A stretch of DNA of 16,601 bases from Parcubacteria bacterium DG_74_3 (lineage in GTDB: Bacteria > Patescibacteriota > Minisyncoccia > Minisyncoccales > DG-74-3), in assembly GCA_001302985.1 (NCBI GenBank), contig LJNG01000014.1, positions 1 to 16,601 of the forward strand. The letters are read 5' to 3'. Below the pieces are notes generated by a model. It was not told where the DNA came from and made no database searches. It was given only the letters and a program-made list of their open reading frames with translations. The translations under genes and the position numbers were made by a program. Positions 1,696 to 16,601 of the stretch are shown here, in pieces; position 1 is the first letter of the stretch; every line of letters begins with the position of its first letter.

Positions 1696-1859
1696 TTTTT
1701 TAAAAGAAGTTGCGAAATTCAGTAAAAATTCTATAGTGTCTCGACCCGCATTTCCACTGAATTCTTGTAAACTTCTTTTTGTTAATGATTATTTAACAAA
1801 TTAGACCTTGTTTAATTTTAACACATTCGAAAAATAAAAAATTTTAAAAATAAAGAAAA

Positions 1860-2432: not shown

Positions 2433-2501
2433 AAAATTGAAAAAACTTTACAGCCTGAGCTTGTTTTCTTTTTGTATTAAGTTGCTCCCAATGAATGCCA
2501 C

Positions 2502-3107: not shown

Positions 3108-3133
3108 TAAATTAATAATTTTTTTATTACCTT

Positions 3134-3637: not shown

Positions 3638-3718
3638 ATGTACACGTACAATAAAAGGTTTTTTTATTTGAAAGCCCTATTGTCTTTTTTCTAAACCCAA
3701 AACAATACTTTCTGTCTT

Positions 3719-4985: not shown

Positions 4986-5873
4986 TTATTTTTTAATAAA
5001 ACCCTCTAAAAATTGAAAGGTTTTCTCGTTTATAAGCGCTTCTTTAGTATAATCTTTTAGGCGCTCTGGGTCAAGATTTGTTTCTAAACCAGGATTGGCA
5101 ACTGAAATTTTCTTTATTTCTTCTTCAATTTCTTTTTCTGTCACTGATATGTTTTCTTTTTTACCAATTTCTCTTAAAACCAAAGATTTTTTAATTCTAG
5201 TTTTGGATTCGGGTAAAAAAGAATCTAGAATCTCTTTTTCTGTTTTTTGTAGTTTGGCCAAATAGTCTTCAAAGCTTATTTGAAGAGTTTGAACTACTCC
5301 ACTTTTGAGACTTTGGAGCATTCTTTTTTTCTCTTCCTCTATTAAAATTTCAGGTATATCAACCTTGCTCTCGAGGGCTATTTTTTCTAAGATTTCTCTT
5401 CTCATTCTTTCTTTTTCCCATCTTTCTTTTTCTTGCCTTAATTTTTCTATTTCCTCTTCTGTCACCTTAACTTCTTTTTTCTGAACCCGAGAAGTAAGGC
5501 TTTTGTAATCTGGTAATTTAATTTCGGGTAAAATCCAAATTTTAGCTTTAAATTCAAGGGGGTTATTTGGGGCTAATTTCAAAATTTCAATTTCTGGCTG
5601 AGAAATAATCTTAATTTTATCTGCTAGCTGATTGATGGCCTTAGGATAATTCGTTTGAATAGCCATTTCAGCTGCTTCCTTTAAAATATTTTCTGGGCTC
5701 ACCTCTTTCTCAATGACTTCTTTTGGTGCTTTTCCTTTTCGAAAACCCTTCACTTCCAAGTTTTGGCCCAAGCTCAAGACTGCTTTTTTAACAAAGATTT
5801 GAAACTCTTCTGGTGGAACCTCTATTTTTAACTCAATTTGTGTTTGAGAAATTTTATTAACTGTAGTTCTCAC
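4986..5873 (-). CDS. tig: Trigger factor, short form lacking the FKBP-type PPIase domain
   Basis: The N-terminal ribosome-binding domain carries the signature GFRKGKAP. The sequence then passes directly from the linker (VKVTEEEIEKLRQEKERWEKE) into a Trigger_C-like helical region (KVDIPEILIEEEKKRML...). It is 295 aa, versus about 430 aa for canonical TF. It has a GTG start that overlaps the ppaC TGA by 4 nt. Confidence 0.8.
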   Translation of the reverse strand: MRTTVNKISQTQIELKIEVPPEEFQIFVKKAVLSLGQNLEVKGFRKGKAPKEVIEKEVSPENILKEAAEMAIQTNYPKAINQLADKIKIISQPEIEILKLAPNNPLEFKAKIWILPEIKLPDYKSLTSRVQKKEVKVTEEEIEKLRQEKERWEKERMRREILEKIALESKVDIPEILIEEEKKRMLQSLKSGVVQTLQISFEDYLAKLQKTEKEILDSFLPESKTRIKKSLVLREIGKKENISVTEKEIEEEIKKISVANPGLETNLDPERLKDYTKEALINEKTFQFLEGFIKK

Positions 5874-6823
5874 TTCTTTTCTAAAAATTTAAGTAGTGGG
5901 GGTAAGATTTGTTTTTTTCTGGAAACTACTCCTGGTAAAAAAATTAGGTTTTCTTTTGTTTTTTTCTTAAATATTTTTTCAGCTAACCCTTTTTCTTTTT
6001 CTCCCAGAATAAAAAGAGTGCTGTTTTTTTCCAAAATATCAATTAGGGCGAAAAACAGGAAGTCCGCCTTTCTTTTCTTTTTTAATTTTGCTAAAGCAGA
6101 AAAAATATCTTTTTTTATTTGAAATATCTTTTGGGGAGAAGTTGTTTCCCAAACGCCAATAGCAAAATCTGTTCTTCCGGCCTTAAATTCTTTGTAATCT
6201 GTAGCTACCAGTTTGTCTGGAGAAATACCTGTAATATCAGATTTTACCTCAAACATTTTTTTGGCTAATTTATTTATATTTTCTTTGGAGATTTTTGCTA
6301 AAAACTGAACAATTTTTTTATCTTCTGTGGTGGTGGTGGGAGAGGTGAGCTTTAAGGTATCAGACAAAATGGCAGAGAGAAGCAAACCCGCTTCTTTTTT
6401 CTTTAAAGAGAGATTGTTTTCCAAAAACATTTTTGCCAAAATTGTGCTTGAGCTGCCAATTGGTTCTGCTCGATAAAAAATAGGAGAGACTGTTTTTAAA
6501 CCTCCTAGCTTATGATGGTCTAAAACTCCAACAATGTTTGCTTTTTTAATGCCCGGGGCTGCCTGTTCATAATCTCCGTGGTCTACAAGAAAAACATTTT
6601 TGTCGGAAAGAGATTTTATAATAGGGGGAGCTTTTTGTTTAAAATATTTTAAGACAAATTTTGTTTCTTTATTAAGGGGGCTGGGGCTGGCGACCCTAAT
6701 CTTAAAATTTAAAAAGCCAATAATGGGCTTTTTTATTTTTTGAAGAAATCGAGCAAAAATTAAAGAGGTGACGATTGCGTCAGTATCCGGGGTTTTGTGA
6801 CCAATAATAATTATTTCCTTCAT
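5870..6823 (-). CDS. ppaC: Family II (Mn-dependent, DHH/DHHA2) inorganic pyrophosphatase
   Basis: IGHKTPDTDAIVTS (DHH motif I), VDHGDYEQA, LDHHKLGG (the DHH motif), ILSDTLKLTSPTTT (characteristic of family II PPases), and a C-terminal DHHA2-like region. The length of 317 aa is typical. Confidence 0.8.
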   Translation of the reverse strand: MKEIIIIGHKTPDTDAIVTSLIFARFLQKIKKPIIGFLNFKIRVASPSPLNKETKFVLKYFKQKAPPIIKSLSDKNVFLVDHGDYEQAAPGIKKANIVGVLDHHKLGGLKTVSPIFYRAEPIGSSSTILAKMFLENNLSLKKKEAGLLLSAILSDTLKLTSPTTTTEDKKIVQFLAKISKENINKLAKKMFEVKSDITGISPDKLVATDYKEFKAGRTDFAIGVWETTSPQKIFQIKKDIFSALAKLKKKRKADFLFFALIDILEKNSTLFILGEKEKGLAEKIFKKKTKENLIFLPGVVSRKKQILPPLLKFLEKK

Positions 6824-8049
6824 TTTTTTTGTTTGGTTTTTGATTTTTTTGCTGGAGGTTGCTTCTTTTTTGTTTTTTCTTTCTTCCCCACTTCTTCCTC
6901 TTTGATTTCTTCTTCCTCTCCTTTTGCTTCTGTACTTCTAACATCAATTTTCCAGCCGGTTAGTTTAGCTGCCAGCCTAACATTCTGTCCATCTTTGCCA
7001 ATAGCTAAAGATAACTGTTCTTCGGGAACAATACAGAGAGCCTTGTTTTTCGGTAAAATTTTAACCTCCAATACTTTAGCTGGAGAAAGGGCATTGGCAA
7101 TAAATTTCTCTGGGTCTTCTGACCATTCAATAATATCAATTTTCTCTCCACCCAATTCATTAATAACCGCCATCACTCGAGTTCCCCTTTGACCAACAGC
7201 TGCTCCAATGGGGTCGATTCCCTCGACATCAGAAAAAACTGCAATTTTTGTCCGGGATCCTGCTTCTCGAGCAATTGCTTTTATCTGAACCTGACCTGAA
7301 GAAATTTCCGGCACTTCTAGCTCAAAAAGTTTAGAAATCAATTTGGGATAGGCTCTGGATAAAAAGATTCTTGGTCCTTTAGGCGTTTCTTCTACTTTTA
7401 AAACATAAAGTTTCAATCTTTGGCCCGGTCGGTAAAACTCTCCAGGAACCTGCTCTTCTCTTGGTAAAATTGCCAGGGTTTTACCGATATTAAAGTAGAT
7501 ATTTCTACCTTCAATCCTTTGTAAAATTCCAGAAATAATTTCTCCCTCCTTTCTTTTATATTCCCCGAAAATGCTTTCTCTTTCTGCTTCTTTTAATCTT
7601 TGCATTATTACCTGTTTGGCAGTTTGGGCAGCAATTCGACCATAATCTTTCTCAGTCTTAAGGGGAATTTTTAATTCTTCCCCGACCTGAATTTTTTTAT
7701 TAATCTTTCTGGCTTCTTTGATTAGAATGTGTTTTTCGGGATTAAAACGGATCTTTTTTTCTTCCTCTTTTTCTTCTCCTTCTTCTTGAGTTCTTTTTTC
7801 TTTTAGCGCCAGAAGTTCTTCTTCAGAGTAAATCATGCTTTCATCCACCGCCTCCTGAATCTGCCAAAATTTAACCTCGCCCGAATTTAAATCGAGTTCG
7901 GCTCGGATTATTTGTCCCCTTTTTCCGTATTCTTTTTTATAGGCAGCAGCTATTGCTTGCTCAATGGTCTCTAAAACTTTTTCTTGGGGGATTCCCTTTT
8001 CTTCAGCAATTTGAGCAATAGCTGAGCTAAATGTCTTTAAATCCTCCAT
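6820..8049 (-). CDS. nusA: Transcription termination/antitermination factor NusA (bacterial type)
   Basis: NusA_N (IAQIAEEKGIPQEKVLETIEQAIAAAYKK), an S1 domain (GEIISGILQRIEGRNIYFNIG) and two KH domains (RTKIAVFSDVEGIDPIGAAVGQRGTRV; LSLAIGKDGQNVRLAAKLTGWKIDV). It has a Lys/Glu-rich C-terminal tail and an acidic insertion near residue 85-105. Its stop overlaps the ppaC ATG (ATGA). Confidence 0.9.
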   Translation of the reverse strand: MEDLKTFSSAIAQIAEEKGIPQEKVLETIEQAIAAAYKKEYGKRGQIIRAELDLNSGEVKFWQIQEAVDESMIYSEEELLALKEKRTQEEGEEKEEEKKIRFNPEKHILIKEARKINKKIQVGEELKIPLKTEKDYGRIAAQTAKQVIMQRLKEAERESIFGEYKRKEGEIISGILQRIEGRNIYFNIGKTLAILPREEQVPGEFYRPGQRLKLYVLKVEETPKGPRIFLSRAYPKLISKLFELEVPEISSGQVQIKAIAREAGSRTKIAVFSDVEGIDPIGAAVGQRGTRVMAVINELGGEKIDIIEWSEDPEKFIANALSPAKVLEVKILPKNKALCIVPEEQLSLAIGKDGQNVRLAAKLTGWKIDVRSTEAKGEEEEIKEEEVGKKEKTKKKQPPAKKSKTKQKK

Positions 8050-8110: not shown

Positions 8111-8776
8111 TTAACTTTCTGTCAAGCGACTAAATATTTTTTTTATTCTTAACTCTAAAGCGGGCTTATCATCATCAAACAATAAGCGATTTCTAATTAA
8201 AGAACTTTTCTCTTGAGACTTTTTAATTTCTTCGATGGGGCTTAATCTTTTAATAAAAATCGGAGCCAAAGAAATAATTGAAAAAAGACCGACTGTTTCC
8301 CATTGGTTAAAAGAAGCAGAAAGGATTATAGCTAATACCAGAAACAAAATTGTTCCGATAGAGAGGTTCCAGATAAGACCCAAAAGAACAAAAGGAATCA
8401 AAGAATAAGCTAAAATTCTGGGCGAGAGTGCTAAAAAAGCACCAATAAAAGTTCCGATTCCTCTTCCACCAGCTCCTTTTAAAAAGCACGACCAATTATG
8501 ACCGGTCACAGCTGCTACCCCGGCCATTGCCTGAATTTCGGGTTTTAAACCTAGATTTTGAACTAATTTAACAGCCAAAAAACCCTTACCCACATCTAAA
8601 ACTCCGGTTAAAACCCCTTGCCAGATTCCAATATTTTTAAAAACATTTGAGCCTGAAGTTTTCCGCCAGCCTATTTCTAAGATATTTTTTCGGGTCGAAA
8701 GCTTAGTAACTATATAGCCCGAAGGGAAAGAACCCAAAATATAAGATATTATTAAAAATAAAATCGATTTAATCAT
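8111..8776 (-). CDS. plsY: PlsY-family (acyl-phosphate:glycerol-3-phosphate acyltransferase-like) membrane protein, divergent paralogue 1
   Basis: The N-terminus YILGSFPSGYIVTK matches the PlsY start. It also has LDVGKGFLAV and GHNWSCFLKGAGGRGIGTFIGAF (PlsY GHxFPxFLxFKGGKGVAT box) and is polytopic. Motif 1 reads TSGSNVFKNIG instead of GSGNxGATN. Confidence 0.7.
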   Translation of the reverse strand: MIKSILFLIISYILGSFPSGYIVTKLSTRKNILEIGWRKTSGSNVFKNIGIWQGVLTGVLDVGKGFLAVKLVQNLGLKPEIQAMAGVAAVTGHNWSCFLKGAGGRGIGTFIGAFLALSPRILAYSLIPFVLLGLIWNLSIGTILFLVLAIILSASFNQWETVGLFSIISLAPIFIKRLSPIEEIKKSQEKSSLIRNRLLFDDDKPALELRIKKIFSRLTES

Positions 8777-8864
8777 AAAATAGGTGGTCTGCGATTTTCG
8801 ATTGTTTAGTTGATTATTGTCTCGAGCAAGGAGTAGACATTATCAGCAAGCAAACCAATGTTTA

Positions 8865-9653
8865 TCATTGTTTTTTATATTTTTTTACTTTTTCTTTTCC
8901 TCTTTCTTTCATTATTTTCACAAAGTCAGCTACTAATTTTTTAACATCTTTTATCTTTTCAGCAGCTGTGCCCACCTGAATACAATCTGCCCCTGCCTCT
9001 ATTATTTTCCCTGCTTGCTCTGGCGTTTTTACACCTCCACCAACTACGTAGGGGATGTCAATAGCTGCTCTAACAGTAGCCACCATTTCAGTAGGAACGG
9101 GGGCAAAGGCATTAGAGCCTGCATCTGTAAAAATCAGACGTTTTCCGGAAAATTGTCCGGCAAGAGCCAGGGCAGCTGCAATTTTAGGTCTGTTCCTTGG
9201 AACCAAATTAGCATCTCCCACCCAACCTGCTGTGCCTCCGGGTTCCACTAAAATATAGCCCATGGGTAGGGGTTCTACTCCTAGTTTTTTAATTAAAGGT
9301 GCTGAAAGTGTTTGGGCTTGAGAAATCCAGTAAGGATTTCTTGAGTTAAGTAGGGTCATAAAGAAGATGGCATCAGCAAAGGGAGAAATAGTGGCAATAT
9401 TACCAGGAAACAAAGTAATGGGAAGCCTTACCTTAGCTTTAATTCCTTTGATAACCTTGTCCAAAAGCTCACCCTGAGCTTCGGTACTACCCCCAACTGC
9501 AATAATGTCAGCTCCACCAAGTTGGGCAGCATAAGCTGTTTCAATGGCTGCTTTAATTGAAGGATGGTCGCAAGGGTCAATCACAATTGACAAAAGAGCG
9601 CCTTCTTTCTTAATTTTTTCCCTAATATAAAGTTCAACTTTTCCTGTTTTCAT
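8865..9653 (-). CDS. Geranylgeranylglyceryl phosphate synthase (GGGPS / PcrB family TIM-barrel prenyltransferase)
   Basis: IDPCD, IIAVGGST, LFPGN, LNSRNPYWI, GYILVEPGGTAG, FTDAGSNA and VVGGGVKTPEQA occur in the order and spacing of the GGGPS/PcrB family. The long form with the NPYW segment resembles group II enzymes. The start lies 2 nt after the GGPP synthase stop. Confidence 0.85.
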   Translation of the reverse strand: MKTGKVELYIREKIKKEGALLSIVIDPCDHPSIKAAIETAYAAQLGGADIIAVGGSTEAQGELLDKVIKGIKAKVRLPITLFPGNIATISPFADAIFFMTLLNSRNPYWISQAQTLSAPLIKKLGVEPLPMGYILVEPGGTAGWVGDANLVPRNRPKIAAALALAGQFSGKRLIFTDAGSNAFAPVPTEMVATVRAAIDIPYVVGGGVKTPEQAGKIIEAGADCIQVGTAAEKIKDVKKLVADFVKIMKERGKEKVKKYKKQ

Positions 9654-9655
9654 AT

Positions 9656-10738
9656 TTATACTTTTCTTTCAATTAAATAATTAACAAATTCTCTTAACCT
9701 TTCTTTGGCTGGAGAAGCGGTAAGTAGCCCATCTGCTTCTTGCCAGGCTTCTTGCATAATTTTTTGAGCTACTTTTTGGGCATACTCAACACTACCATAT
9801 TTTTGGATTATTTCTATTGCCTCTCTTTTCTCTTCGGAATCATCAGTATGTTTATTTAATATCTCAACTAATCTCTTTTTATCATCGGGGGTGGCTTGCT
9901 TTAAAGTATGAATAACCATTAAGGTTCTTTTTCCTTCTTTTATGTCATTGCCAAAGACCTTGCCAAACTTTTCTCGTTCTTCCCCTGTTAGGGTTATGTC
10001 TAAAATATCGTCTTGAATTTGAAAGCCGACTCCCATGGCTTCTGCCACTTTACCTGCAGCTTCTGCCAATTCCTTGCTGGCCCCAGAAAGTATTACTGCT
10101 AATTTAGCTGACATTCGAGACAGACATCCTGTTTTGTAAGCACACATTTGGAGATATTCTTCTTCACTTATTTCTTGGGCCTTGCCTTTGTGCCAGTAAA
10201 TATCTGTTCCCTGACCAAAACCTAAGTTTATCATTTCTTGAACATAGGCTTCATAGGCTCTAATTAGAATCTCTGTCTTGAACTTATCTTTATTTTTGAT
10301 GAGGGCTAAAAGAGGGAAAAAGTACATAAAGTTGCCGGCATTTAAAGCAATGTCGATTCCAAAAATTTTGTGTAAAACAGGTTTTCCTCTTCTCAGCTCT
10401 CCTTCGTCTTCGATGTCGTCTATAATAATGGTTCCATTGTGAATTAACTCTGGCACAACCACTATATCTCTCGCTTTTTCAAGATTCCCACCAACAGCTT
10501 CGGTGATTAATAGGAATAGGATTGGTCTCCATCTTTTCCCGCCCCGACCAATAAAATCCCAGATGGGTTTAATTAAAGCTCTGTCTGCTGCTTCAAAACT
10601 ATAAGCATACCTGGGTTTTCCAAAAGTAAACTCCAGCCATTCTTTAGTTGCTTCCTTGGGAAGATATTTTTCAATAATCTCATCAACTTCGGGCTTTAAT
10701 TTTTCTAAATATTCTTCAAATTTTTCTTTTTTTATCAT
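9656..10738 (-). CDS. Polyprenyl diphosphate synthase, probable geranylgeranyl diphosphate (GGPP) synthase
   Basis: The first Asp-rich motif is in LIHNGTIIIDDIEDEGELRRGKP and the second in GFQIQDDILD. The HNxxxxIDDIEDxxxLRRGxP block closely resembles the type III (eukaryote/archaeal-like) GGPPS signature. Chain length is inferred, not proven. Confidence 0.8.
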   Translation of the reverse strand: MIKKEKFEEYLEKLKPEVDEIIEKYLPKEATKEWLEFTFGKPRYAYSFEAADRALIKPIWDFIGRGGKRWRPILFLLITEAVGGNLEKARDIVVVPELIHNGTIIIDDIEDEGELRRGKPVLHKIFGIDIALNAGNFMYFFPLLALIKNKDKFKTEILIRAYEAYVQEMINLGFGQGTDIYWHKGKAQEISEEEYLQMCAYKTGCLSRMSAKLAVILSGASKELAEAAGKVAEAMGVGFQIQDDILDITLTGEEREKFGKVFGNDIKEGKRTLMVIHTLKQATPDDKKRLVEILNKHTDDSEEKREAIEIIQKYGSVEYAQKVAQKIMQEAWQEADGLLTASPAKERLREFVNYLIERKV

Positions 10739-10767
10739 TTTGGGTGTGAAAACTGGTTTTACTACTA

Positions 10768-10797
10768 TTAATGTTGACTTCTTATTTCAATTATAAT
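10768..10797 (+). promoter_or_regulatory. Candidate sigma70-type promoter for the DGGGP synthase gene. Its -10 overlaps a minus-strand TATAAT that could serve the GGPP synthase operon.
   Basis: A perfect TATAAT lies at 10792-10797, with a weak -35 TTAATG 18 nt upstream. A better TTGACT at 10774-10779 is only 12 nt away. The reverse strand reads TATAAT at 10795-10790. The assignment rests on sequence alone. Confidence 0.3.
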
Positions 10798-10826
10798 ATA
10801 TTGGGTGCGTTTGTGTTTATAGCTTG

Positions 10827-10892
10827 ACCCAGCACCTTATGCTACAATAACAATACCTAATAAGGGTTTTATGCGCAATCTCGGTGCTGGGT
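10827..10892. promoter_or_regulatory. 10-bp perfect inverted repeat (acccagcacc ... ggtgctgggt) enclosing 46 nt, in the divergent intergenic region
   Basis: 10827-10836 is the exact reverse complement of 10883-10892, and on the plus strand it is followed by tttattgtaattt. It is either a leader RNA stem-loop in the 5' UTR of the DGGGP synthase gene or a protein operator. Confidence 0.4.
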
Positions 10893-10935
10893 TTATTGTA
10901 ATTTCGGGCGTTTTATTCAATTATACAATAATAAC

Positions 10936-11736
10936 ATGAATCCTTTTTTTGAAATAATTCGTCCCATTACTTCCTTGGTTGCGGCTCTCGGCGCTGTTGT
11001 CGGGGCTATAATTTCAGGGGTCTCTGACCCTATTTTGCTTTTTTATGCCTTCCTGGCTGTTTTTACTATTACCGGGGCTGGAATGATTCTTAATGATTAT
11101 TATGATTTAGAGATTGATAAAATTAATGCTCCCCAGAGACCCTTACCCTCGGGCCAAATATTCCCTAGAGATGCTTTATCTTATAGTTCCTGGTTATTCA
11201 TTGTGAGCATTTTTTTTGCGGCCCTCATCAATAGTTATTGTCTGGCTTTAGCTCTCGTCAATGCTGTCCTCGAATATTTATATTCTAAGCACCTTAAACG
11301 AACTTTCTTGTTGGGTAATATAATAGTCAGTTGGTTTACGGCTTCTACTTTTATTTTCGGAGGCCTCATCACTTTAGATTTCAGCATTGTAAAGATTATT
11401 GCCCCCCTAGCTTTCCTGGCTAATATGGGAAGAGAAATTTTCAAGACAATTGAAGATATAAAAGGAGATAAAAAATTGAAACTAGACACTCTCCCAATAG
11501 CTGTGGGAATTGATTCGGCCAGAGAGATAGCCCAAGGATTTATTGCTTCGGCCATCTTATTATCTCCTCTTCCCTATTTTTCCGGGCTTCTTAATTCTAT
11601 TTATCTAAGGGTTGTTTCAATTAGCAATGCTCTATTTTTATATTCCCTCTCCCAAACACCAACTCAAATTAAGAGAATTACTAAGCTGGCCATGCTCATT
11701 GTTCTTTTAGCGTTTTTACTTGGTAGGTCTTTTTAA
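10936..11736 (+). CDS. UbiA-family prenyltransferase, probable digeranylgeranylglyceryl phosphate (DGGGP) synthase
   Basis: LNDYYDLEIDKINAPQRPLPSGQI (NDxxDxxxD followed by RPxPSG, as in archaeal DGGGPS), a second Asp motif in IEDIKGDKK, about 8 TM segments and a short 266-aa length. It lies between the GGGPS/GGPPS and GGR genes. It is the only plus-strand CDS in the window. Confidence 0.75.
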   Translation: MNPFFEIIRPITSLVAALGAVVGAIISGVSDPILLFYAFLAVFTITGAGMILNDYYDLEIDKINAPQRPLPSGQIFPRDALSYSSWLFIVSIFFAALINSYCLALALVNAVLEYLYSKHLKRTFLLGNIIVSWFTASTFIFGGLITLDFSIVKIIAPLAFLANMGREIFKTIEDIKGDKKLKLDTLPIAVGIDSAREIAQGFIASAILLSPLPYFSGLLNSIYLRVVSISNALFLYSLSQTPTQIKRITKLAMLIVLLAFLLGRSF

Positions 11737-11760
11737 TCTTTTAAAAGGTCCCGCTTTTTC

Positions 11761-11785
11761 AACGCTTTCAAAGAGCGTTTTTTTT
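11761..11785 (+). terminator. Rho-independent terminator after the DGGGP synthase gene, at the convergent junction with the reductase gene
   Basis: aacgct-ttcaaag-agcgtt (6-bp stem, 7-nt loop) followed by a run of T's (8 consecutive including the 2 stem bases, 11778-11785). It abuts the TAA of the minus-strand reductase gene. Confidence 0.6.
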
Positions 11786-12905
11786 AACCGAAACTAGCCG
11801 TGTTCTTTTCTAAAATCAGAAAAAGCTTAGCAAGTCGGAAAAAATTTTTTCTTAATTGATCCTTAGATAGTAACCCGAAAACTCCTGGAAAAGTTTTAAG
11901 ATAAAAAACATCTTTATTTTCCAAAATTTCAGCTAATTGGTTTAAAACGGAATTGGGAAAAGAATATAATATTTTTTGAGCTACTAATAAGTCTGTGCTA
12001 AAGGGAGGCATTGATTTAATTTTTCTTTCGTAAAGATGGGGGGTGTTAGAGAGAATACATTCAGCAGCCACTCTTCCGGAAATCATGGCATTTATCATTC
12101 CTCCTCCCAAAACTGGATCAACGAGGCTACCGGCATCGCCTGTTAAGAAAGCATTGTCTTTAAAAAGAGTCATTTTTGCTCCTCCCCAGGATATAGTCCC
12201 GCTTATATTTTTTAAGAGCTTATAATTTCCATAATTTGGCTTGACCTGATTTTCCATAAAGTATTGGAATCTTTCAATAAGATTGCCCTTGCCGCCCAAT
12301 CCAATATTGGCGGTTTTTTTAGATTTGGGAAATATCCACACATAACCATCAGGAAACTTTTCTTTGTCAAAGTATATTTGAATCACCGAGTCATCGATCT
12401 CTCTTTCTAATTCGACTAAATATTCAAAAGTAGATAAAATTTCCGGTTTTTCTCCAAAAACTCTTCTTCTGACAATCGAGAGGGGTCCGTCAGCCCCGAT
12501 TAAATATCGGGATTGAAAGGCTTTTCCTTCATTTGTTGTTACCTTCCAGATATCGCCCCTCCTTTCTAAATTAACCACCCGTGTTTCTAGTTGAATTTTA
12601 GCTTGAACTTTTTTTGCCAAACACTTCTCAAAACCAATTCTATCTATTACAAAACCTATTTTTTCTCCTTTAATCGTAATTGGTTTTCCTGATGGAACAA
12701 ATACTTTTACCGTGTTAATAACGGTTGAAATCCAAGCAGGATTAGGAGAAATCCCTTCTTTTTCTAGGGATTCTTTGCTTATGCCTTCGGCACATTGAAC
12801 GGGTTTTCCAATCTCTTTTTTCTGGTCCAAAATCAAACAATTTTTTAAGTGTCTTCCGGCAGATAAGCCTGCGGGTCCTGCTCCGATAATAATAGTTTCT
12901 AACAT
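11784..12905 (-). CDS. Geranylgeranyl reductase family flavoprotein (digeranylgeranylglycerophospholipid reductase-like)
   Basis: FAD-binding IIIGAGPAGLSAG, a catalytic-Cys region VQCAEGIS (compare xCGEGxS in archaeal GGR), GADGPLSIVRR and LTGDAGSLVDPVLGGGMINAMISG. The length of 373 aa fits. Confidence 0.8.
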   Translation of the reverse strand: MLETIIIGAGPAGLSAGRHLKNCLILDQKKEIGKPVQCAEGISKESLEKEGISPNPAWISTVINTVKVFVPSGKPITIKGEKIGFVIDRIGFEKCLAKKVQAKIQLETRVVNLERRGDIWKVTTNEGKAFQSRYLIGADGPLSIVRRRVFGEKPEILSTFEYLVELEREIDDSVIQIYFDKEKFPDGYVWIFPKSKKTANIGLGGKGNLIERFQYFMENQVKPNYGNYKLLKNISGTISWGGAKMTLFKDNAFLTGDAGSLVDPVLGGGMINAMISGRVAAECILSNTPHLYERKIKSMPPFSTDLLVAQKILYSFPNSVLNQLAEILENKDVFYLKTFPGVFGLLSKDQLRKNFFRLAKLFLILEKNTASFG

Positions 12906-12914
12906 AAAACAAAT

Positions 12915-13559
12915 TTAGGATTGGTTAATTGTTTTCTTTTTCCAATACCACTTGGGTCTTTCTCCATAAAGAGCCGAGGGAAAGTGGGGCCACTGTTTTA
13001 CGAAAATTGGAAGGGTCATTAACAAACAAGCTAAAAAATATTTTTTGTCCAAATAAAAACCTATAAGGGGGAGAAAAATATTTCCTATAAATTGACCGAA
13101 AAAGAAAATCTGGGTAGTCAAAATAAACAAAATAGCTATCCCTGCCCAGGGTAAAAGCAACCACTGAAAATTTAAGACGGCTAACACCCCTATTAAAGAG
13201 GCCTGGGCTTTTCCCCCCGAAAAGCGTCCTTCTTTCAGTTTAAAGTAGATGGAAAAACAATGACCCAATATTACGCCAAAGGCAGCAAGACTGGTTGCCC
13301 ATAAAATATTGTAATTTAAAAAAGAAAGCTTCTGAGGAAGAAAAACGGCTAGTGCTCCCTTTCCGATATCAACCATCGCTGTCAAAATAAAGAGAAGTGG
13401 TTTGCCTGTAGTTCGCATTACATTAAGAGCACCGACATTTTTGGATTCTTCTTTTCTAATGTCTTTACCGGTGAATTTTTTAGTTACCAAGAACGCGGTG
13501 GGGAAAGAACCCAAAAGATAGGCGATTACGAAGAATGTGATTGGATATAAGAAAGTCAT
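12915..13559 (-). CDS. plsY: PlsY-family acyltransferase-like membrane protein, divergent paralogue 2
   Basis: AYLLGSFPTAFLVTKKFTGKDIRKEESKNVGALNVMRTTG aligns to the PlsY N-terminus and motif 1 (GSGNxGATNVxRxxG), with Gly->Glu, Gly->Lys and Thr->Leu substitutions. It also has VDIGKGALAV. GHCFSIYFKLKEGRFSGGKAQAS matches the PlsY His/GGKG box with a 6-aa insertion. Confidence 0.7.
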   Translation of the reverse strand: MTFLYPITFFVIAYLLGSFPTAFLVTKKFTGKDIRKEESKNVGALNVMRTTGKPLLFILTAMVDIGKGALAVFLPQKLSFLNYNILWATSLAAFGVILGHCFSIYFKLKEGRFSGGKAQASLIGVLAVLNFQWLLLPWAGIAILFILTTQIFFFGQFIGNIFLPLIGFYLDKKYFLACLLMTLPIFVKQWPHFPSALYGERPKWYWKKKTINQS

Positions 13560-13581
13560 TCGTGTCTAATAGATAAATTTT

Positions 13582-15363
13582 TTATTCAATTGGTATCCAG
13601 GCAGCAATTAAGCTTCCCGGACCAATGTGAGCCCCGACCACCGGACTCACCAAATTAATAAAAGAAATTTCGGCTTTAATGCTTTTTAATTTGTCTTTTA
13701 ATTTTTTTGCTTCTGGGAGATTATTGGCGTGCGAAATGATTACCCGGATTCTTTTACCCCTTTCTCTTTCTTTTTTACTTTCTTTAGCTATTTTTTTAAA
13801 GAGGGCATCGGCCATATCTCTAGCCCAAACCACCCCCCCTTTAATCAGTACTCCATTTTTAATTTTTATTAGAGGATGAAGACGGATTTTCTTCATTCTT
13901 CTTATCCATTCAGCCTGTCTTTTGGTTACTCTTCCTCCAGCCTCTATCCATCTTGGCTCCTCGAAAAGAAGATAGAGATTGATTTTGCTCCTGAGCTTTT
14001 TTAACTTATTAATAACTTCGACTATTTCTCTTTGTTCTTGAATTAATTCGATGGCTCGCAAAACCAAAAGAGCCTGGGAGGCAGAAGCGTGCCAAGAATC
14101 AAAAACAAAAATCCGTTTCGGCTCCTGGACCTCTGCTTCAGCCTGTTTGGCAGAATTATAACAACCAGAGAGTTTAGCGGTAATGGTAATACACAAAACC
14201 TTTTCAAACTTGTGAAGCTGTTTTTCAAAAGCCACAAGATAGTCCTTGGGGGTTGCCTGAGAGGTCTTGGGGAAACTTTTTATGCCCCGCCTTTTTGCTT
14301 CAATCATTTTTTGATAAATATTTTCCCCGGGTATTTTTTTTCCTTCTGGCCAATTAAGGACAGTTGGCACTATTTCAATTTGATAACGTTCAGTAATTTT
14401 GGGTAAGAGTCCAGCAACATCATCGGTGACAATTCCAATTGATACCTGCCTGACCGAAGGCTCTCCTCCCACCTCTTTGGCCATGTCTTCAATTCTTAAA
14501 CTTTCAAGCTTGCCGGATTCCCTTGCTATTTTTTCAACCTCATCCACCAAGTCGGTATGAATATGAACCTTGGTTTTGTCGCCAATTTTGACTACTTCGA
14601 TGCTGTTTCCTAAAATCGCTAATTTTTTCTCAAGTAATTCTTTGTCTAACTTTTGATTTTTTACCAAAAAGACAACTTCATAGCGATGGGAAAGGGTTTG
14701 AATAAATCTTCTAACTTGTTCTGAAGGTCGTTCCTCGACTCTCTCTTTTCTTTTTTCGCCTTCTAGGGCTTCGAGATGAGCCTCGAGAATCATTAAGAAG
14801 GCCAAGCCTCCGGCATCAACCACATTGGCTTTTCTAAAAATTTCCATTTTTTCTCGGGTAGCCAAGAGGGCTTCATTAGCTTTTTCTGTGGCTTTTTTAA
14901 AAAGTTGAATGATATTCCTTTCCTGCCCCGCTTCTTTTTGAAGGGTTTGAGCTGCTGCGTCAATTACATCCAAAATTGTTCCTTCTATGGGATTTTGAAT
15001 TGATTCTCTAGCTTTCTCTGCTCCTTTTTTAAAAGCAACAGAGAGTTTCTTGGCGTTTACCGGGTTTTTATTGAGCAGCGGTAAAAAACCAGCTAAAAAG
15101 CCGGTGTAAATTACACCAGCATTTCCCTGAGCCGCAATAAGAGCCCCATCTAAGGTAGCTTCTGAGATTTCCCGTAAGTCTTGAAATTCTTTTACCTCAA
15201 TCGCTTCTTTAATTCCCAACAGGGTCTTGGCCATATTGCTTCCTGTGTCTTGGTCGGGTACTGGAAAAACATTAATTTTGTTAATCTCTTCTTTATTTCT
15301 CTCAACCCTTTCCCAGGCAAGAAGCATCATTTTTTTGAGTTCCTTATGGGTCAAATACTCCAT
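13582..15363 (-). CDS. DAK2 (FakA-like kinase N-domain) plus FakA-like middle domain plus full DegV (FakB-like fatty-acid-binding) domain fusion. It is a putative single-chain fatty acid kinase.
   Basis: N-terminus: INVFPVPDQDTGSNM (the DhaL/FakA phosphate-Mg site) and GNAGVI. Middle: GNSIEVVKIGDKTKVHIHT and LRIEDM, like the YloV/FakA central domain. From about residue 307 the sequence is a canonical DegV domain: IGIVTDDVAGLLP, TSQATPKDY, ITITAKLSGCYNSAKQA, VFDSWHASASQALLV, ISHANN and SPVVGAHIGPGS. Confidence 0.8.
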   Translation of the reverse strand: MEYLTHKELKKMMLLAWERVERNKEEINKINVFPVPDQDTGSNMAKTLLGIKEAIEVKEFQDLREISEATLDGALIAAQGNAGVIYTGFLAGFLPLLNKNPVNAKKLSVAFKKGAEKARESIQNPIEGTILDVIDAAAQTLQKEAGQERNIIQLFKKATEKANEALLATREKMEIFRKANVVDAGGLAFLMILEAHLEALEGEKRKERVEERPSEQVRRFIQTLSHRYEVVFLVKNQKLDKELLEKKLAILGNSIEVVKIGDKTKVHIHTDLVDEVEKIARESGKLESLRIEDMAKEVGGEPSVRQVSIGIVTDDVAGLLPKITERYQIEIVPTVLNWPEGKKIPGENIYQKMIEAKRRGIKSFPKTSQATPKDYLVAFEKQLHKFEKVLCITITAKLSGCYNSAKQAEAEVQEPKRIFVFDSWHASASQALLVLRAIELIQEQREIVEVINKLKKLRSKINLYLLFEEPRWIEAGGRVTKRQAEWIRRMKKIRLHPLIKIKNGVLIKGGVVWARDMADALFKKIAKESKKERERGKRIRVIISHANNLPEAKKLKDKLKSIKAEISFINLVSPVVGAHIGPGSLIAAWIPIE

Positions 15364-15376
15364 ATTGTAAGCCCGA

Positions 15377-16030
15377 TTAACGAAGCTTCTTTTCTAGCTC
15401 TTTAAGAATCTTAGCTGCTATTTCTTTTCCTCCGAGACCAAAAGCAATACCTATGGTAAGAGAGATGGCAATAACAAAACCAATAAAGACGGTCAGAATT
15501 AAAGTGGGTGCTATTTGGAGTTGGTACAAAATAGCCAGGGTAGCCAAACTCCAAATTATCCAGCGTATCACTCTTCCAAAAAGCCGCGAGTAGGTTATCT
15601 TTTCTTTTTCCAAAACAGCCACCATAATTTTCTGAGAAAAATCAGCCAAAAAAACAGCGATGATAAAGATTAGGGATGCAATAAAAATATTCTGGAAATA
15701 ACTTATAACTTTTCCTAAAAACTGACTGAACTGCGGAAGGCCCAGAATTTCTAAAGAAATCATCAGAAAAATAATTATAAAGAACCATTTTACTAATTCT
15801 CCAAAAAATCCCGGAGCATCCAAGCTAAGATCAAGCTTGGCTAGAGTCTCTGCCCAACCCAATCTTTTAAGAGTTTGGTTAAGATTGGTTTTGTTGAGAA
15901 ATCGAACAGCAGTGTTTCCCATCCATTTGGCCACAAAAAAACCGGCGACAAAAACTAAAATTGCCCACAGAAGTTGGGGTAATTTCTCAATAAGGCTCAC
16001 TAGAAATAATTGAAGAAACCCTGTTTCCAT
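15377..16030 (-). CDS. Polytopic membrane protein of the conserved TM-helix repeat type (resembles the N-terminal region of MscS-like channels)
   Basis: Two repeats of a TM pair. The first has the pattern LPQLLWAILVFVAGFFVAKWMGNTAVRFLNK...LKRLG, followed by LVKWFFIIIFLMISLEILGL. This resembles the TM_helix family as I recall it. No soluble MscS beta domain is present. Confidence 0.5.
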   Translation of the reverse strand: METGFLQLFLVSLIEKLPQLLWAILVFVAGFFVAKWMGNTAVRFLNKTNLNQTLKRLGWAETLAKLDLSLDAPGFFGELVKWFFIIIFLMISLEILGLPQFSQFLGKVISYFQNIFIASLIFIIAVFLADFSQKIMVAVLEKEKITYSRLFGRVIRWIIWSLATLAILYQLQIAPTLILTVFIGFVIAISLTIGIAFGLGGKEIAAKILKELEKKLR

Positions 16031-16046
16031 GCAAATTTATTGTAAC

Positions 16047-16601
16047 TTACCATTGATTTTGAGACAAGCCCAATCTAAATCCTATCTGGGTAGCGCTTAT
16101 GTGCAAAATGAAGGTTAAAATTAAAAGGGTTATCCACACTCCCATATTTATTGCATAAAATGGGCTTAAAAAAAGAGCTGAGCCAATTACATAATTTATC
16201 TGGTCAAAGGGCAGAAACCTTGTCCCTGGTTTTAGTCCCAAGCGTCGTTTAATAAAAGCGAAAAATAAATCGCCGCAAAGGGCTCCTCCCGACATTAAAA
16301 CACCAAAGAAAAAAATATTAATTATTTGATAGTTTAAAAAACTAATTTCTCTGATAAAAAGAAGTCTATTAAAAAGTTGTCTCTGGAAAAGAGCTGTCAA
16401 GAGACCAGCAGTTAATCCTAAAATAATCCCCCGCCAGGTTTTGTGGTTTCCTAAAATAGGGGAGCCCTGAAGCTTCCTTCCGAAATCAAGGGGCTTGTCC
16501 AAGCATTTAAAAAAACCCCTACTTGCCATTAAAGAGGGTGTCATATTTGTAAAGTAAGCTGGCAAGAAAAAATAAAAAGATGATAAAATCCATTTAAGCA
16601 T
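16047..16601 (-). CDS. carS: CDP-archaeol synthase (CarS / DUF46 family CTP:2,3-di-O-geranylgeranyl-sn-glyceryl-phosphate cytidylyltransferase)
   Basis: FLPAYFTNMTPSL, PLDFGRKLQGSPILGNHKTWRGII (CarS PxDxG...G..KTxRG block) and LPFDQINYVIGSALF (the DQxxF/Y acidic motif), with about 5 TM segments. At 184 aa it is the typical CarS size. Its ATG is the last three bases of the window, so the true start could lie further upstream. Confidence 0.75.
   Translation of the reverse strand: MLKWILSSFYFFLPAYFTNMTPSLMASRGFFKCLDKPLDFGRKLQGSPILGNHKTWRGIILGLTAGLLTALFQRQLFNRLLFIREISFLNYQIINIFFFGVLMSGGALCGDLFFAFIKRRLGLKPGTRFLPFDQINYVIGSALFLSPFYAINMGVWITLLILTFILHISATQIGFRLGLSQNQW

Follow-up and report, generated by a model that had tools for sequence, protein, structure and literature searches.

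The window analyzed here is the whole 16,601-nucleotide stretch of contig LJNG01000014.1 from Parcubacteria bacterium DG_74_3. Positions 8111-16601 hold nine lipid-region ORFs, whose coordinates were checked and whose families, determined by profile-HMM searches, are in every case those proposed in the initial annotation of this DNA.

Organization of the locus

On the minus strand, the first series of genes encodes a CarS-like CTP:lipid cytidylyltransferase of a CPR-specific subclade (16047-16601; PF01864), a small MscS-TM-like membrane protein (15377-16030; PF05552), a single-chain fatty acid kinase (FakA::FakB fusion, 13582-15363; Dak2, FakA-like_M and DegV domains), a PlsY paralogue referred to as type B (12915-13559; PF02660) and a geranylgeranyl reductase (GGR) family flavoenzyme (11784-12905; TIGR02032, GGR_cat). 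The second minus-strand series encodes a short-chain trans-isoprenyl diphosphate synthase (IPPS), probably a GGPP (C20) synthase (9656-10738; PF00348), a group II GGGPS (8865-9653; NF003198, TIGR01769) and another PlsY paralogue, type C (8111-8776; PF02660). Between them, on the plus strand, is the gene of a DGGGP synthase (DGGGPS)-type UbiA prenyltransferase (10936-11736), for which NF009521 is the best NCBIfam model. The downstream neighbor, nusA (6820-8049, minus strand; NusA_N, S1 and KH domains), is conserved and ties the cluster to the chromosome of the host. Pfam matches identify this gene and those of a DHH/DHHA2 PPase, trigger factor, ClpP and an S26 peptidase as the bacterial neighbors originally named, in a CPR/Parcubacteria host.

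Intergenic gaps within the region are 2, 9, 13, 16 and 22 nt, and the IPPS stop codon is located 2 nt from the GGGPS start. The tight minus-strand operons originally described are found as regards packing, but because UbiA is on the plus strand the run is divided into two units, carS-msc-fakAB-plsY-GGR and IPPS-GGGPS-plsY(-nusA). These units are separated by 197 nt of divergent intergenic sequence (10739-10935), located between the IPPS operon (minus) and UbiA (plus), and by a 47-nt convergent gap. The divergent region contains probable promoters, with promoter-like hexamers on both strands (10774-10802, plus; 10819-10790, minus), and a 10-nt perfect inverted repeat (10827-10836/10883-10892); no sequence conservation of 10739-10935 was found in related loci. 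In the convergent UbiA/GGR gap, a hairpin and T-run at 11761-11779 (plus strand), AACGCTTTCAAAGAGCGTT followed by TTTTTT, form a likely terminator. Near nusA, a strong promoter-like site is found at 8125-8097.

The isoprenoid ether cassette

Profile scores and solved structures agree in assigning GGGPS, IPPS, DGGGPS and GGR to the archaeal lipid subfamilies in which they had been placed. The GGGPS ORF scores 293 bits with NF003198 (cutoff 247) and 203 bits with TIGR01769 (cutoff 161.55), and its best solved structure is the M. thermautotrophicus GGGPS (4MM1, 224 bits). No PcrB structure was matched in this search of solved structures (E<=1e-5). The alternative assignment as a PcrB-type enzyme is rejected on these grounds, in line with the original proposal. 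The protein is 100% identical to a GGGPS recorded for Parcubacteria bacterium DG_74_3. Identity to DPANN homologues is 62-69%, and in a neighbor-joining tree without support values the CPR GGGPS group together as one clade, which has named Aenigmarchaeota (DPANN) as its sister.

The name "GGPP synthase" holds in part. The ORF belongs to the polyprenyl_synt family (PF00348, 224 bits), its best full-length structure match is P. horikoshii GGPPS (1WY0) and both Asp-rich motifs are intact (FARM, DDIED; SARM, DDILD), but the C20 product is no more than likely, and the cutoffs of all NCBIfam equivalog models are missed. The residue five positions before the FARM is Gly, i.e., not aromatic. Near the FARM the protein most closely resembles the GGPPS of yeast and human (2DH4, 2Q80), with NFMYF where these have NYMYF. 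The His of yeast "NLHRGQG", which we take to be His139, aligns with a Gly. The enzyme is probably a short-chain trans-isoprenyl diphosphate synthase with a type-III-like chain-length region and GGPP as its product.

For the UbiA ORF the DGGGPS model NF009521 yields the highest score, 249 bits, which is below the cutoff of 296; NF009523 and NF009522 follow, and the next unrelated NCBIfam family, ChlG, is found at 98 bits. The solved M. jannaschii DGGGPS (6M31) is matched over the full length at 154 bits, compared to 49.5 for chlorophyll synthase; among solved structures the protein is closest to DGGGPS, as initially proposed. Both UbiA Asp-rich motifs are conserved (NDYYDLEID, EDIKGDKK). The reductase passes the cutoff of the GGR-family model TIGR02032 (GG-red-SF; 186.4 vs 158.8 bits) and matches PF22578 (GGR_cat) at 52 bits; its best structure is the T. 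acidophilum digeranylgeranylglycerophospholipid reductase (3OZ2, 114 bits). DGGGPS and GGR are always co-encoded in the GGGPS-bearing loci examined.

The CarS-like protein and its neighbors

The DUF46 protein is a member of the CarS family, as had been suggested: it matches PF01864 over its full length (110 bits), its NF003114 score of 135.7 is just below the cutoff (148), and a profile of its clade matches A. pernix CarS (5GUF) with E=1.7e-10. Its subclade is specific to CPR, and most members have no cassette beside them (the two adjoin in only 3 of 80 sampled species-level loci); the transferred ether cassette does not include the CarS-like gene. Members are encoded by at least 179 species-level genomes of GTDB, Patescibacteria almost throughout, and their genes nearly always adjoin those of Fak, Msc and an AIPS-like transferase. 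The nearest named canonical relatives are from Woesearchaeota (~41% identity). The motif of the subclade, GDLFFAFIKRR...PFDQ(I/T)NY, differs from that of the rest of the family, GDxxKSFxKRR...PFDQxD, with Ser-to-Ala and terminal Asp-to-Asn changes in this conserved motif. Archaeal CarS has a strong preference for DGGGP over phosphatidic acid (PMC9385802), but in most CPR genomes with a CarS-like gene no cassette adjoins it, so that its native substrate may be an acyl lipid.

The FakA::FakB fusion joins a FakA kinase (Dak2 and middle domain) to a FakB/DegV fatty-acid-binding domain (Dak2, 110 bits; FakA-like_M, 52; DegV, 159; TIGR00762 DegV, 179 vs cutoff 99.7; partial matches to FakA and FakB1). 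Its gene adjoins carS in 49/80 species-level loci, and that of the MscS-TM-like protein (PF05552, 50.5 bits) directly follows the CarS-like gene in 55-57. Just past the window edge, beside the CarS-like gene, are a CDP-alcohol transferase gene and a PHP phosphatase gene, which overlap by 29 nt. The best match of the transferase is AIP synthase (122 bits), and its translation, read by eye, contains the full DxxDGxxAR...G...D...D signature.

This gene neighborhood bears on an explanation in which the CarS-like, AIPS-like and PlsY proteins would serve fatty-acyl lipids only, with the CarS-like protein as the CPR equivalent of CdsA, while the ether cassette would yield a minor or non-bilayer product, e.g., a prenyl-glycerol-phosphate anchor like those formed by Bacillus PcrB, and not a bulk membrane lipid. 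The CarS-like gene adjoins Fak/Msc genes far more often than GGGPS, and its clade has motif changes of its own. In addition, the only lipidomics of CPR-enriched small-cell fractions, from another site and other taxa, found acylglycerols alone (PMC7242380), and no G1P dehydrogenase was found in about 25-32 kb of the source contig or in the 10 kb around the cluster at six related loci. However, the GGGPS is of group II and closest to the M. thermautotrophicus enzyme, its constant company of DGGGPS and GGR is that of membrane-lipid pathways, and the cassette is embedded in a lipid cluster, not a cell-wall locus. Furthermore, phosphatidic acid is used inefficiently by archaeal CarS (PMC9385802), although the specificity of this clade may differ. 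On balance, we consider this explanation unlikely.

The PlsY paralogues

Residues were compared using Aquifex PlsY (5XJ5) and a 57-sequence alignment. Both paralogues are below the TIGR00023 cutoff of 137.2 (type B, 106.6; type C, 93.7), with PF02660 scores of 118 and 103 bits, respectively. In type B, motif 1 reads ESKNVGALNVMR, in which S35, N37 and R45 are retained and T41 is replaced by Leu; an insertion precedes GGK, and there is no H177/N180 motif. In type C, motif 1 is IGWRKTSGSNVFKN, as compared to the canonical GSGNxGATNVxR (S35W, N37K, R45K), GGKG is changed to GGRG (K104R), the HRENIKR motif (H177/N180) is lost and the C-terminal NRLIFDxD is conserved. Contrary to the initial annotation, the two proteins are non-canonical paralogues with altered glycerol-3-phosphate clamp and contact positions, not the canonical ester-lipid entry enzyme.

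Type C, a protein of the membrane acyltransferase fold whose acceptor site is altered, retains H92, a position-41 hydroxyl and the GG-x-G loop, which serves for acyl-phosphate. It is under strong purifying selection (62-70% identity over more than 120 CPR clusters) and is encoded directly downstream of GGGPS, sometimes with DegV between, in every cassette-bearing CPR locus whose flank is long enough. These properties, and the fact that the changes affect all phosphate-clamp positions (35, 45, 104 and 180) as well as H177, favor a route in which the paralogues, especially type C, would transfer the acyl group of acyl-phosphate supplied by the Fak fusion to GGGP or another lysolipid and not to glycerol-3-phosphate. 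The mixed 1-O-prenyl-2-acyl glycerophospholipids would then be activated by the CarS-like enzyme. Because neither PlsX nor ACP has been reported in CPR (PMC7242380), a PlsC-type second acylation would be problematic, which also favors this route. The B-C tandem is, however, common and equally conserved in Paceibacteria loci without a cassette nearby (L017, L024, L076-L092), which argues that type C has a function independent of GGGP, and the intact DGGGPS points to a second ether bond. We know of no biochemical precedent for a PlsY acting on a lysolipid, and the hybrid route appears unlikely.

Conservation and origin

Identical proteins in the same order are found on more than 12 contigs assembled independently from different samples (JGI, ENA, Logan). 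The full supercluster, including the interleaving with Fak, DegV and PlsY genes noted originally, is shared by at least 14 divergent loci with protein identities of only 59-77% (the window, L014/L181, L015, L019, L099, L100, L107, L116, L117, L119, L131, L134, L137 and L140). The order GGGPS-PlsY(C)-NusA is seen in 20/80 metagenomic GGGPS loci and in L099, L100 and L094, the latter a distant variant that retains this adjacency. In a Nealsonbacteria variant the cassette is located beside mevalonate-pathway genes (HMG-CoA reductase, GHMP kinases, MVD), which ties it to isoprenoid supply.

The archaeal type of the enzymes and the identity of the GGGPS to DPANN homologues could suggest that an archaeal fragment was joined to a bacterial contig during assembly or binning. 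This explanation, to which we assign a negligible probability, is refuted by the repeated NusA-PlsY-GGGPS and GGR-PlsY-Fak-CarS junctions, which recur on the independent contigs and, in related species, on contigs of up to 584 kb, by uniform composition and by the bacterial genes that flank the archaeal-type genes on both sides and lie between them. The originally noted similarity in codon style is borne out: in GC3 and codon usage, the cassette genes fall within the range of housekeeping genes, which fits long residence.

Proposed lipid assembly

We consider it likely, on the basis of the sequence comparisons, that the region is a native, conserved Paceibacteria lipid-assembly supercluster composed of two layers. 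In the first, Paceibacteria-wide layer (FakB (DegV), AIPS-like transferase, PHP phosphatase, CarS-like, Msc-like, FakA::FakB and PlsY paralogues), scavenged fatty acids would be converted to acyl-phosphate and transferred to a glycerol-phosphate-type acceptor, after which the acyl lipid would be activated by CTP and receive an inositol-phosphate-type head group. The second layer is the four-gene cassette (GGR, DGGGPS, GGPPS-like and group II GGGPS), nested between the PlsY paralogues; it represents one CPR clade, with DPANN (Aenigmarchaeota) GGGPS as the nearest relatives. Here, a C20 (possibly C25) prenyl diphosphate would be made, a first and then a second prenyl chain would be joined to glycerol phosphate by ether bonds, and saturation of the chains would follow. 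The DGGGP-type product would enter the shared CarS-like and AIPS-like steps, and archaeal-type diether phospholipids are thus predicted alongside, or combined with, fatty-acyl lipids. All enzymatic steps, the length of the chains, the stereochemistry of the glycerol phosphate and the resulting membrane composition are what we infer from these assignments.

Observations that weigh against the two-layer reading are the missed equivalog cutoffs (DGGGPS, CarS and all IPPS models), the motif changes in the CarS-like clade, the absence of G1P dehydrogenase and IPP-pathway genes from the 25-32 kb of the source contig and the six related loci (10 kb) mentioned above, and the acylglycerol-only small-cell fractions.

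Cloacimonetes GGGPS and DGGGPS yield archaeal-type lipids in E. coli, and the source genomes lack a dedicated G1P dehydrogenase (PMC7852524). The arrangement, initially described as unusual, is so only in a relative sense, since it recurs in Paceibacteria and an earlier study had pointed out GGGPS together with DGGGPS in a single Parcubacteria genome (Villanueva 2021, PMC7852524). The integration of CarS and an AIPS-like transferase with Fak/PlsY is not reported in the literature searched. CPR bacteria, including the ultra-small Parcubacteria, are usually described as unable to make lipids. If the two-layer reading is correct, a CPR bacterium may have membranes in which archaeal-type ether lipids and fatty-acid lipids are mixed.

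Gene Content and Genomic Setting

Minus-strand genes fill the window almost without interruption, and profile searches bear out every gene family named in the initial annotation. An ether-lipid cassette encodes a GGR-type reductase (11784-12905, minus strand), a UbiA prenyltransferase of the DGGGPS type (10936-11736, plus strand), a polyprenyl synthase (IPPS; 9656-10738, minus strand) and a geranylgeranylglyceryl phosphate synthase (GGGPS; 8865-9653, minus strand). It is found between two members of the PlsY family (type C at 8111-8776 and type B at 12915-13559, both on the minus strand). Beyond type B, on the same strand, follow a fusion of Dak2, FakA-middle and DegV domains (13582-15363), a small protein with MscS-type transmembrane helices (Msc-like, 15377-16030) and a CarS-like gene (16047-16601).

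These genes had been described as minus-strand operons. The tight packing stands, with intergenic gaps of 2-22 nt inside the minus-strand runs, but the UbiA gene on the opposite strand splits the region into two units. The first (carS - msc - fakA::fakB - plsY(B) - GGR, minus strand) ends at a 47-nt convergent gap that harbors a hairpin with a T-run (11761-11779), while the second (IPPS - GGGPS - plsY(C), minus strand) begins at a 197-nt intergenic region between divergent genes, in which both strands carry promoter-like sites. The nusA gene has a strong promoter-like site of its own. The region between IPPS and UbiA also holds a perfect 10-nt inverted repeat (ACCCAGCACC at 10827-10836 and GGTGCTGGGT at 10883-10892, 46 nt apart), which related loci do not share. 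The cassette borders are marked by no tRNA, Rfam family or conserved intergenic element.

The question of a bacterial/archaeal assembly chimera, raised in the initial annotation, is settled by the same gene order in independent assemblies, by bacterial flanks and by uniform composition, which together exclude such an origin. Identical GGGPS is found on 12 contigs and identical CarS on 8; these were assembled independently (JGI, ENA and Logan) and agree in gene order throughout. The flanks encode NusA, a DHH/DHHA2 pyrophosphatase, trigger factor, ClpP, PNPase, S15, a CCA-adding enzyme and a T4SS-type pilin. For the archaeal-type genes, GC, GC3 and codon usage lie within the housekeeping range, in agreement with the native composition proposed earlier. 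In NCBI, the identical protein (100%) is named [quoted passage not shown].

Among the other genes of the window, trigger factor (4986-5873) is only 295 residues long and matches Trigger_N and Trigger_C, with no match to an FKBP-type PPIase domain. A row of small proteins that carry an N-terminal transmembrane helix and are secreted or membrane-anchored is found at 1228-4132, including a Gly/Ser-rich, pilin-like protein (1228-1695), a protein with a Cys-rich C-terminus (2502-3107) and a cupredoxin-domain protein (3134-3637); an S26 signal peptidase (1860-2432) adjoins them.

Assignment of the Cassette Enzymes

Every enzyme was also placed by sequence matches to solved structures, where the cassette and CarS-like enzymes match the archaeal structures 4MM1, 6M31, 3OZ2, 1WY0 and 5GUF. 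For GGGPS, three profiles are exceeded (NF003198, 293 vs a cutoff of 247; TIGR01769, 203 vs 161.55; TIGR01768, 194 vs 113). The concern that this protein might be a PcrB-type enzyme is not supported: among solved structures the nearest is 4MM1, the M. thermautotrophicus group II enzyme (224 bits), further matches are 6JO3, 6NKE and 4JEJ, and at E ≤ 1e-5 this comparison yields no PcrB structure. The PcrB equivalog NF003197 (HepGP synthase) scores only 25.8 vs 260.

For the UbiA member, the DGGGPS assignment holds in rank, i.e., the three best NCBIfam models are all of the DGGGPS type (249, 234 and 158 bits), but all three scores fall below the equivalog cutoffs. Other UbiA families score lower (ChlG 98 and CyoE 53 bits). 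A MenA/CtaB-type identity, considered initially, appears less likely from a full-length match of 154 bits to M. jannaschii DGGGPS (6M31) vs 49.5 bits to chlorophyll synthase. Both Asp-rich motifs, NDYYDLEID and EDIKGDKK, are kept in the alignment to the M. jannaschii enzyme. The GGR exceeds TIGR02032 (186.4 vs 158.8) and PF22578 (GGR_cat, 51.9 vs 27), and its nearest structure is the Thermoplasma digeranylgeranylglycerophospholipid reductase 3OZ2.

The IPPS reaches none of the NCBIfam equivalog cutoffs; among structures matched over the full length, an archaeal GGPPS ranks first, and the Asp-rich motifs FARM (DDIED) and SARM (DDILD) are intact in alignments to 1WY0 and 5JFQ. Gly and Thr are found 4-5 positions before FARM, where there is no aromatic residue, and the nearby sequence most resembles that of yeast/human type III GGPPS (NFMYF vs NYMYF). 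In the yeast enzyme Tyr107, Phe108 and His139 form the floor that limits the product to C20; the residue that we take to occupy the position of His139 is Gly in the IPPS. This Gly, the NFMYF floor and the lack of an aromatic residue before FARM together make a C20 product likely and a C25 product possible.

CarS-Like Protein and Head-Group Genes

The CarS-like protein aligns over residues 1-184 with profile positions 1-175 of 175 in PF01864 (110 bits). Its placement as CarS is upheld in part, because the CarS-like clade profile matches A. pernix CarS (5GUF, E = 1.7e-10), but the NF003114 cutoff is missed (135.7, under 148). Across 150 representatives the CarS family displays the motif GDxxKSFxKRR...PFDQxD(Y/F), while the CPR clade reads GDLFFAFIKRR...PFDQ(I/T)NY, i.e., FAF for KSF and DQ(I/T)N for DQxD. 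The Ser-to-Ala change is almost confined to the CPR clade. The last Asp is also absent in ~10% of the other family representatives, so that catalysis by the CPR proteins would still be conceivable. The reviews searched contain no residue-level mapping for CarS by which the Asp-to-Asn change could be related to the Asp dyad that binds metal in CdsA/CarS.

The homologues form more than 550 clusters, and among the best 120 of these (54-94% identity) every taxon-bearing name is CPR (Patescibacteria, Parcubacteria, Paceibacterales). The gene is found in at least 179 GTDB species-representative genomes, nearly all Patescibacteria, including complete Nealsonbacteria genomes and UBA5738. Archaeal CarS is remote; the best representatives outside the CarS-like clade are ~41-44% identical, and the named ones are from Woesearchaeota. 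Two CarS-like loci are recorded in GTDB as "Candidatus Pacearchaeota archaeon" (DAOSAR010000001.1 and DAOSDI010000010.1, loci L055 and L065). The context in both is typical of CPR (Fak fusion, DegV, PlsY, UPF0102, PHP), and they are probably mislabelled Paceibacteria.

On two longer JGI contigs of this region (L001 and L009), carS is followed by a divergently oriented pair of genes overlapping by 29 nt, which encode a PHP phosphatase and a CDP-alcohol phosphatidyltransferase, and then by a stand-alone DegV (FakB) gene. The transferase (L009 8418-9002, outside the window edge) is AIPS-like: NF040950 is its best model (122 bits vs a cutoff of 180), PIP synthase scores 66, and the signature DFIDGAVAR-x8-G-x3-D-x3-D is complete as read by eye in the translation. 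Head-group steps thus appear to be encoded next to the window.

Proposed Pathway

We consider it probable that the cluster enables the cell to make isoprenoid glycerol-ether phospholipids as well as acyl lipids, by steps all of which we infer. Here, the IPPS would make GGPP, and GGGPS would ether-link it to glycerol phosphate, i.e., to G1P or, via promiscuity, to G3P; bacterial GGGPS has been reported to be promiscuous, with G3P as a possible acceptor (PMC7852524). The second chain would be added by DGGGPS, the product would be activated with CTP by the CarS-like enzyme, a head group derived from inositol phosphate would be installed by the AIPS-like transferase and the PHP phosphatase, and the chains would be saturated by GGR. 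In parallel, FakB and the FakA::FakB fusion would phosphorylate scavenged fatty acids and so supply the PlsY paralogues with acyl-phosphate. Because either stereoisomer of glycerol phosphate is accepted by PlsY and PlsC, as recent work shows (PMC13400652), stereochemistry would be no firm barrier between the ether and acyl branches.

Three observations count against synthesis of ether lipids by the cluster, namely that several enzymes fall below curated equivalog cutoffs, that neither a G1P dehydrogenase nor an IPP-pathway gene is found in the fetched sequence of the source contig, and that the one lipidomic study of CPR-enriched small-cell fractions, from a different site and different taxa, revealed only acylglycerols (PMC7242380).

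Two Layers of Conserved Synteny

In a sample of 80 loci, drawn from at least 179 genomes with CarS-like genes, the CarS-like gene is accompanied by the Msc-like protein in 55-57 loci, the PHP phosphatase in 47, the AIPS-like transferase in 30-31 and PlsY genes in ~30. The Fak fusion found in the window (13582-15363) recurs in 49 of the 80, and several CarS loci hold two or three additional stand-alone DegV genes. GGGPS together with a DGGGPS-type UbiA is found in 3 of the 80. These counts indicate that the CarS-like gene is part of a Paceibacteria-wide lipid cluster rather than being ether-specific, and this synteny would point to acyl lipids at least as much as to DGGGP. Such a setting agrees with an arrangement in which the CarS-like enzyme serves acyl lipids and the cassette yields only a minor product. 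Archaeal CarS, on the other hand, strongly prefers DGGGP over phosphatidic acid and is no substitute for E. coli CdsA (PMC9385802), and we regard this alternative as quite unlikely.

The second layer is the cassette. All GGGPS genes of the CPR type with enough flanking sequence are found in the order GGR - UbiA - IPPS - GGGPS directly upstream of plsY(C) - nusA. All contigs that reach beyond this carry the complete supercluster (AIPS-like - PHP - CarS - Msc - Fak - ... - cassette - PlsY(C) - NusA), i.e., the window, L014/L181, L015, L019, L099, L100, L107, L116, L117, L119, L131, L134, L137 (a 584-kb contig) and L140; a 196-kb contig of P0018 bears it in full. The close relatives L017 and L024 display Fak - DegV - PlsY(A/B/C) - NusA, with the cassette missing.

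From the three CarS loci of 80 with GGGPS, the cassette could be taken for a recent insertion in a small clade. This explanation was rejected, because L094, L099, L100, L181 and eight metagenomic loci display the same nesting at 59-77% protein identity, because a distant lineage retains IPPS-GGGPS-PlsY(C)-NusA, and because all CPR GGGPS form one clade.

Two variants of the cassette were found. In a distant Paceibacterium (L094 1-7045, equal to L113, and L103), fatty-acid synthesis (FAS) genes are found upstream of it, in the order FabG - FabA-like - FabK - PlsC - AccC - BCCP - biotin ligase - carboxyltransferase. This "partial FAS" run recurs in the cultured archaeal parasite Minisyncoccus archaeiphilus (MNSC_05930-05970), for which it has been reported without an explanation (PMC12281837); among the annotation entries listed for this organism, no GGGPS or CarS terms occur. 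In Nealsonbacteria (L095/L096 6452-17637; L161), the cassette reads NUDIX - GGR - UbiA - IPPS - GGGPS and forms one uninterrupted stretch with the genes for HMG-CoA reductase, two GHMP kinases and mevalonate diphosphate decarboxylase, a locus that would amount to a mevalonate-to-diether gene island.

A different isoprenoid cassette is located directly downstream of the CarS-Msc-Fak core in three further loci, from other Parcubacteria (L029 12972-20059, L042 13045-20552 and L045 14835-18977). It starts with thiolase-like - (DUF6580 - B12-binding radical SAM with DUF4070) - DUF362 - SDR and continues with divergent UbiA - GGR - polyprenyl synthase - NUDIX; GGGPS was not found within the fetched flank. 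By analogy, the radical SAM gene beside lipid genes recalls makers of membrane-spanning or otherwise modified lipids.

PlsY Paralogues and the Fak Fusion

An alignment of 57 PlsY ORFs from CarS loci resolves three classes, referred to as A, B and C, and some loci harbor all three (e.g., L017 14745-16695 and L076 9403-16145). Type A is sometimes found directly upstream of the CarS-like gene in Paceibacteria loci. A type A protein from a related locus meets TIGR00023 (178 vs 137.2), while the window encodes types B and C only, both of which miss this cutoff (106.6 and 93.7, respectively). The canonical type A is not found in the 32-kb contig seen.

In Aquifex PlsY, the phosphate clamp for G3P is formed by S35, R45, K104 and N180, the 2-OH group is contacted by S142 and H177 (Li et al. 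2017, PMC5700162), and acyl-phosphate is bound by T41 and H92 (PMC5700162). In type C, positions 35, 45 and 104 are occupied by W, K and R, and the H177/N180 motif is gone; H92 and a hydroxyl at position 41 remain. The type B protein of the window has kept S35, R45 and K104, carries T41L and displays no H177/N180 motif. The proposal in the initial annotation that the plsY genes provide the entry to ester lipids thus needs revision, with the equivalog cutoff missed and G3P-binding residues gone. Type C is strongly conserved in CPR (62-70% identity across more than 120 clusters). Types B and C appear to be functional proteins for which G3P acylation cannot be assumed, and a different acceptor is plausible.

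The Fak fusion is a single chain of 593 residues in which all three Pfam domains score above their cutoffs. Full-length YloV/FakA models are missed because DegV replaces the usual C-terminal domain of FakA, i.e., a complete FakB/DegV domain stands in its place and FakA and FakB are one polypeptide. Probst et al. 2020 left open how CPR make acyl-phosphate without PlsX or ACP (PMC7242380), and a single-chain Fak kinase could answer this question.

If the PlsY paralogues acylate an acceptor other than G3P, they might make true ether/ester hybrids. The lost G3P-binding residues are consistent with such a role, DGGGPS in the cassette would instead supply a second isoprenoid chain, and this explanation is unlikely. 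A broader conjecture, to which we give somewhat less credence still, is that Paceibacteria run a hybrid pathway in which PlsYs without the clamp acylate GGGP or other lysolipids with Fak-made acyl-phosphate, and in which the CPR-specific CarS-like enzyme and the AIPS-like transferase finish the lipid. If true, natural ether/ester, isoprenoid/acyl glycerophospholipids would be a living intermediate across the lipid divide, found throughout a bacterial class whose members often live next to or on archaea.

Origin of GGGPS

The nearest GGGPS outside CPR are those of DPANN Aenigmarchaeota (62-69% identity). In a neighbor-joining (NJ) tree of 91 sequences, which carries no support values, all CPR GGGPS, including the mevalonate- and FAS-linked variants, form one clade, and its sister, in the same tree without support values, is a clade with named Aenigmarchaeota. 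One locus of this type (L097) is unambiguously archaeal (TFIIB, histone, eIF5A) and has synteny in common with a second (L123). A trio of NAD-dependent epimerase - GGGPS - A24 prepilin peptidase is conserved in the two (L097 9050-11568 and L123 8984-11761), and in L123 the epimerase and GGGPS read as a single ORF of 598 residues. Unlike GGGPS, with its 62-69% identity, UbiA and IPPS reach only 31-48% identity to the copies in Aenigmarchaeota-type loci, which suggests that the four cassette genes may not share one history.

Relation to Known Systems and Implications

Bacteria with GGGPS and DGGGPS are known in the FCB group, with heterologous proof for Cloacimonetes (PMC7852524). Both these and the present bacterium combine GGGPS and DGGGPS with a polyprenyl synthase, GGR-like reductases and bacterial lipid genes, and both are without G1P dehydrogenase (here, within the sequence seen; Villanueva et al. 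2021, PMC7852524). In contrast to the FCB case, the four ether genes here constitute one tight cassette nested among Fak/DegV/PlsY, the nearest relatives of the GGGPS are in DPANN Aenigmarchaeota, unlike the TACK affiliation reported in PMC7852524, and the host belongs to the CPR, a reduced bacterium for which lipid synthesis is reported to be absent. CarS was explicitly not found in Cloacimonetes (PMC7852524), while here a CarS-family gene is joined by an AIPS-like transferase.

Compared with the canonical archaeal pathway (GGPPS, GGGPS, DGGGPS, CarS, AIPS/ASS, GGR), a homologue for each step is found in or next to the window. However, no G1P dehydrogenase is seen, the CarS-like and AIPS-like proteins score under the equivalog cutoffs, the former with clade-specific motif changes, the chain-length region of the IPPS is eukaryote-like (type III) without the archaeal aromatic residue before FARM, and the genes reside in a bacterial chromosome beside acyl-phosphate enzymes. 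Dak2, DegV and PlsY-family domains are all shared with the Gram-positive FakA/FakB-PlsY pathway and, as in that pathway, would supply acyl-phosphate without PlsX or ACP; unlike there, FakA and FakB are a single chain and the PlsYs of the window are divergent, below cutoff and without G3P-binding residues. The Bacillus PcrB/AraM heptaprenylglyceryl phosphate system also involves a bacterial member of the PcrB/GGGPS family, but the GGGPS of the window does not match PcrB and has DGGGPS, GGR and CarS-like partners, which to our knowledge are absent in Bacillus.

Proteins of the type found in the window are already named in NCBI. In the literature searched on CDP-archaeol synthase or GGGPS in CPR, Patescibacteria and Nealsonbacteria, only one sentence was found, in which "a genome of Ca. 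Parcubacteria" with GGGPS and DGGGPS is noted (Villanueva et al. 2021, PMC7852524). The same literature yielded no mention of a CarS-family plus AIPS-like gene in CPR, of the recurrent four-gene cassette nested in the Fak/PlsY cluster, of the three PlsY paralogue classes or of the Aenigmarchaeota sister relationship of CPR GGGPS. Papers on CPR keep stating that lipid biosynthesis is absent (including PMC7242380). Contrary to this view, the present data suggest that one subgroup of Paceibacteria encodes all archaeal-type steps from prenyl diphosphate to head group, including a CarS-family enzyme, a component that was missing in Cloacimonetes, the one bacterial case backed by experiment.

Archaeal membranes are built from ether-linked isoprenoid lipids and bacterial ones from ester-linked acyl lipids. 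Models of early cell evolution and of eukaryogenesis turn on this lipid divide, and organisms that naturally possess both pathways serve as key tests for them. In the cluster described here, the ether genes are physically interwoven with those of a fatty-acid salvage route that needs neither PlsX nor ACP, and the Aenigmarchaeota-sister GGGPS offers a concrete case of gene exchange between two ultra-small radiations. Because the cluster is compact (~12 kb with the flanking head-group genes), it could be expressed as a unit in a heterologous host, and the mixed or hybrid membrane that it may confer is directly testable.
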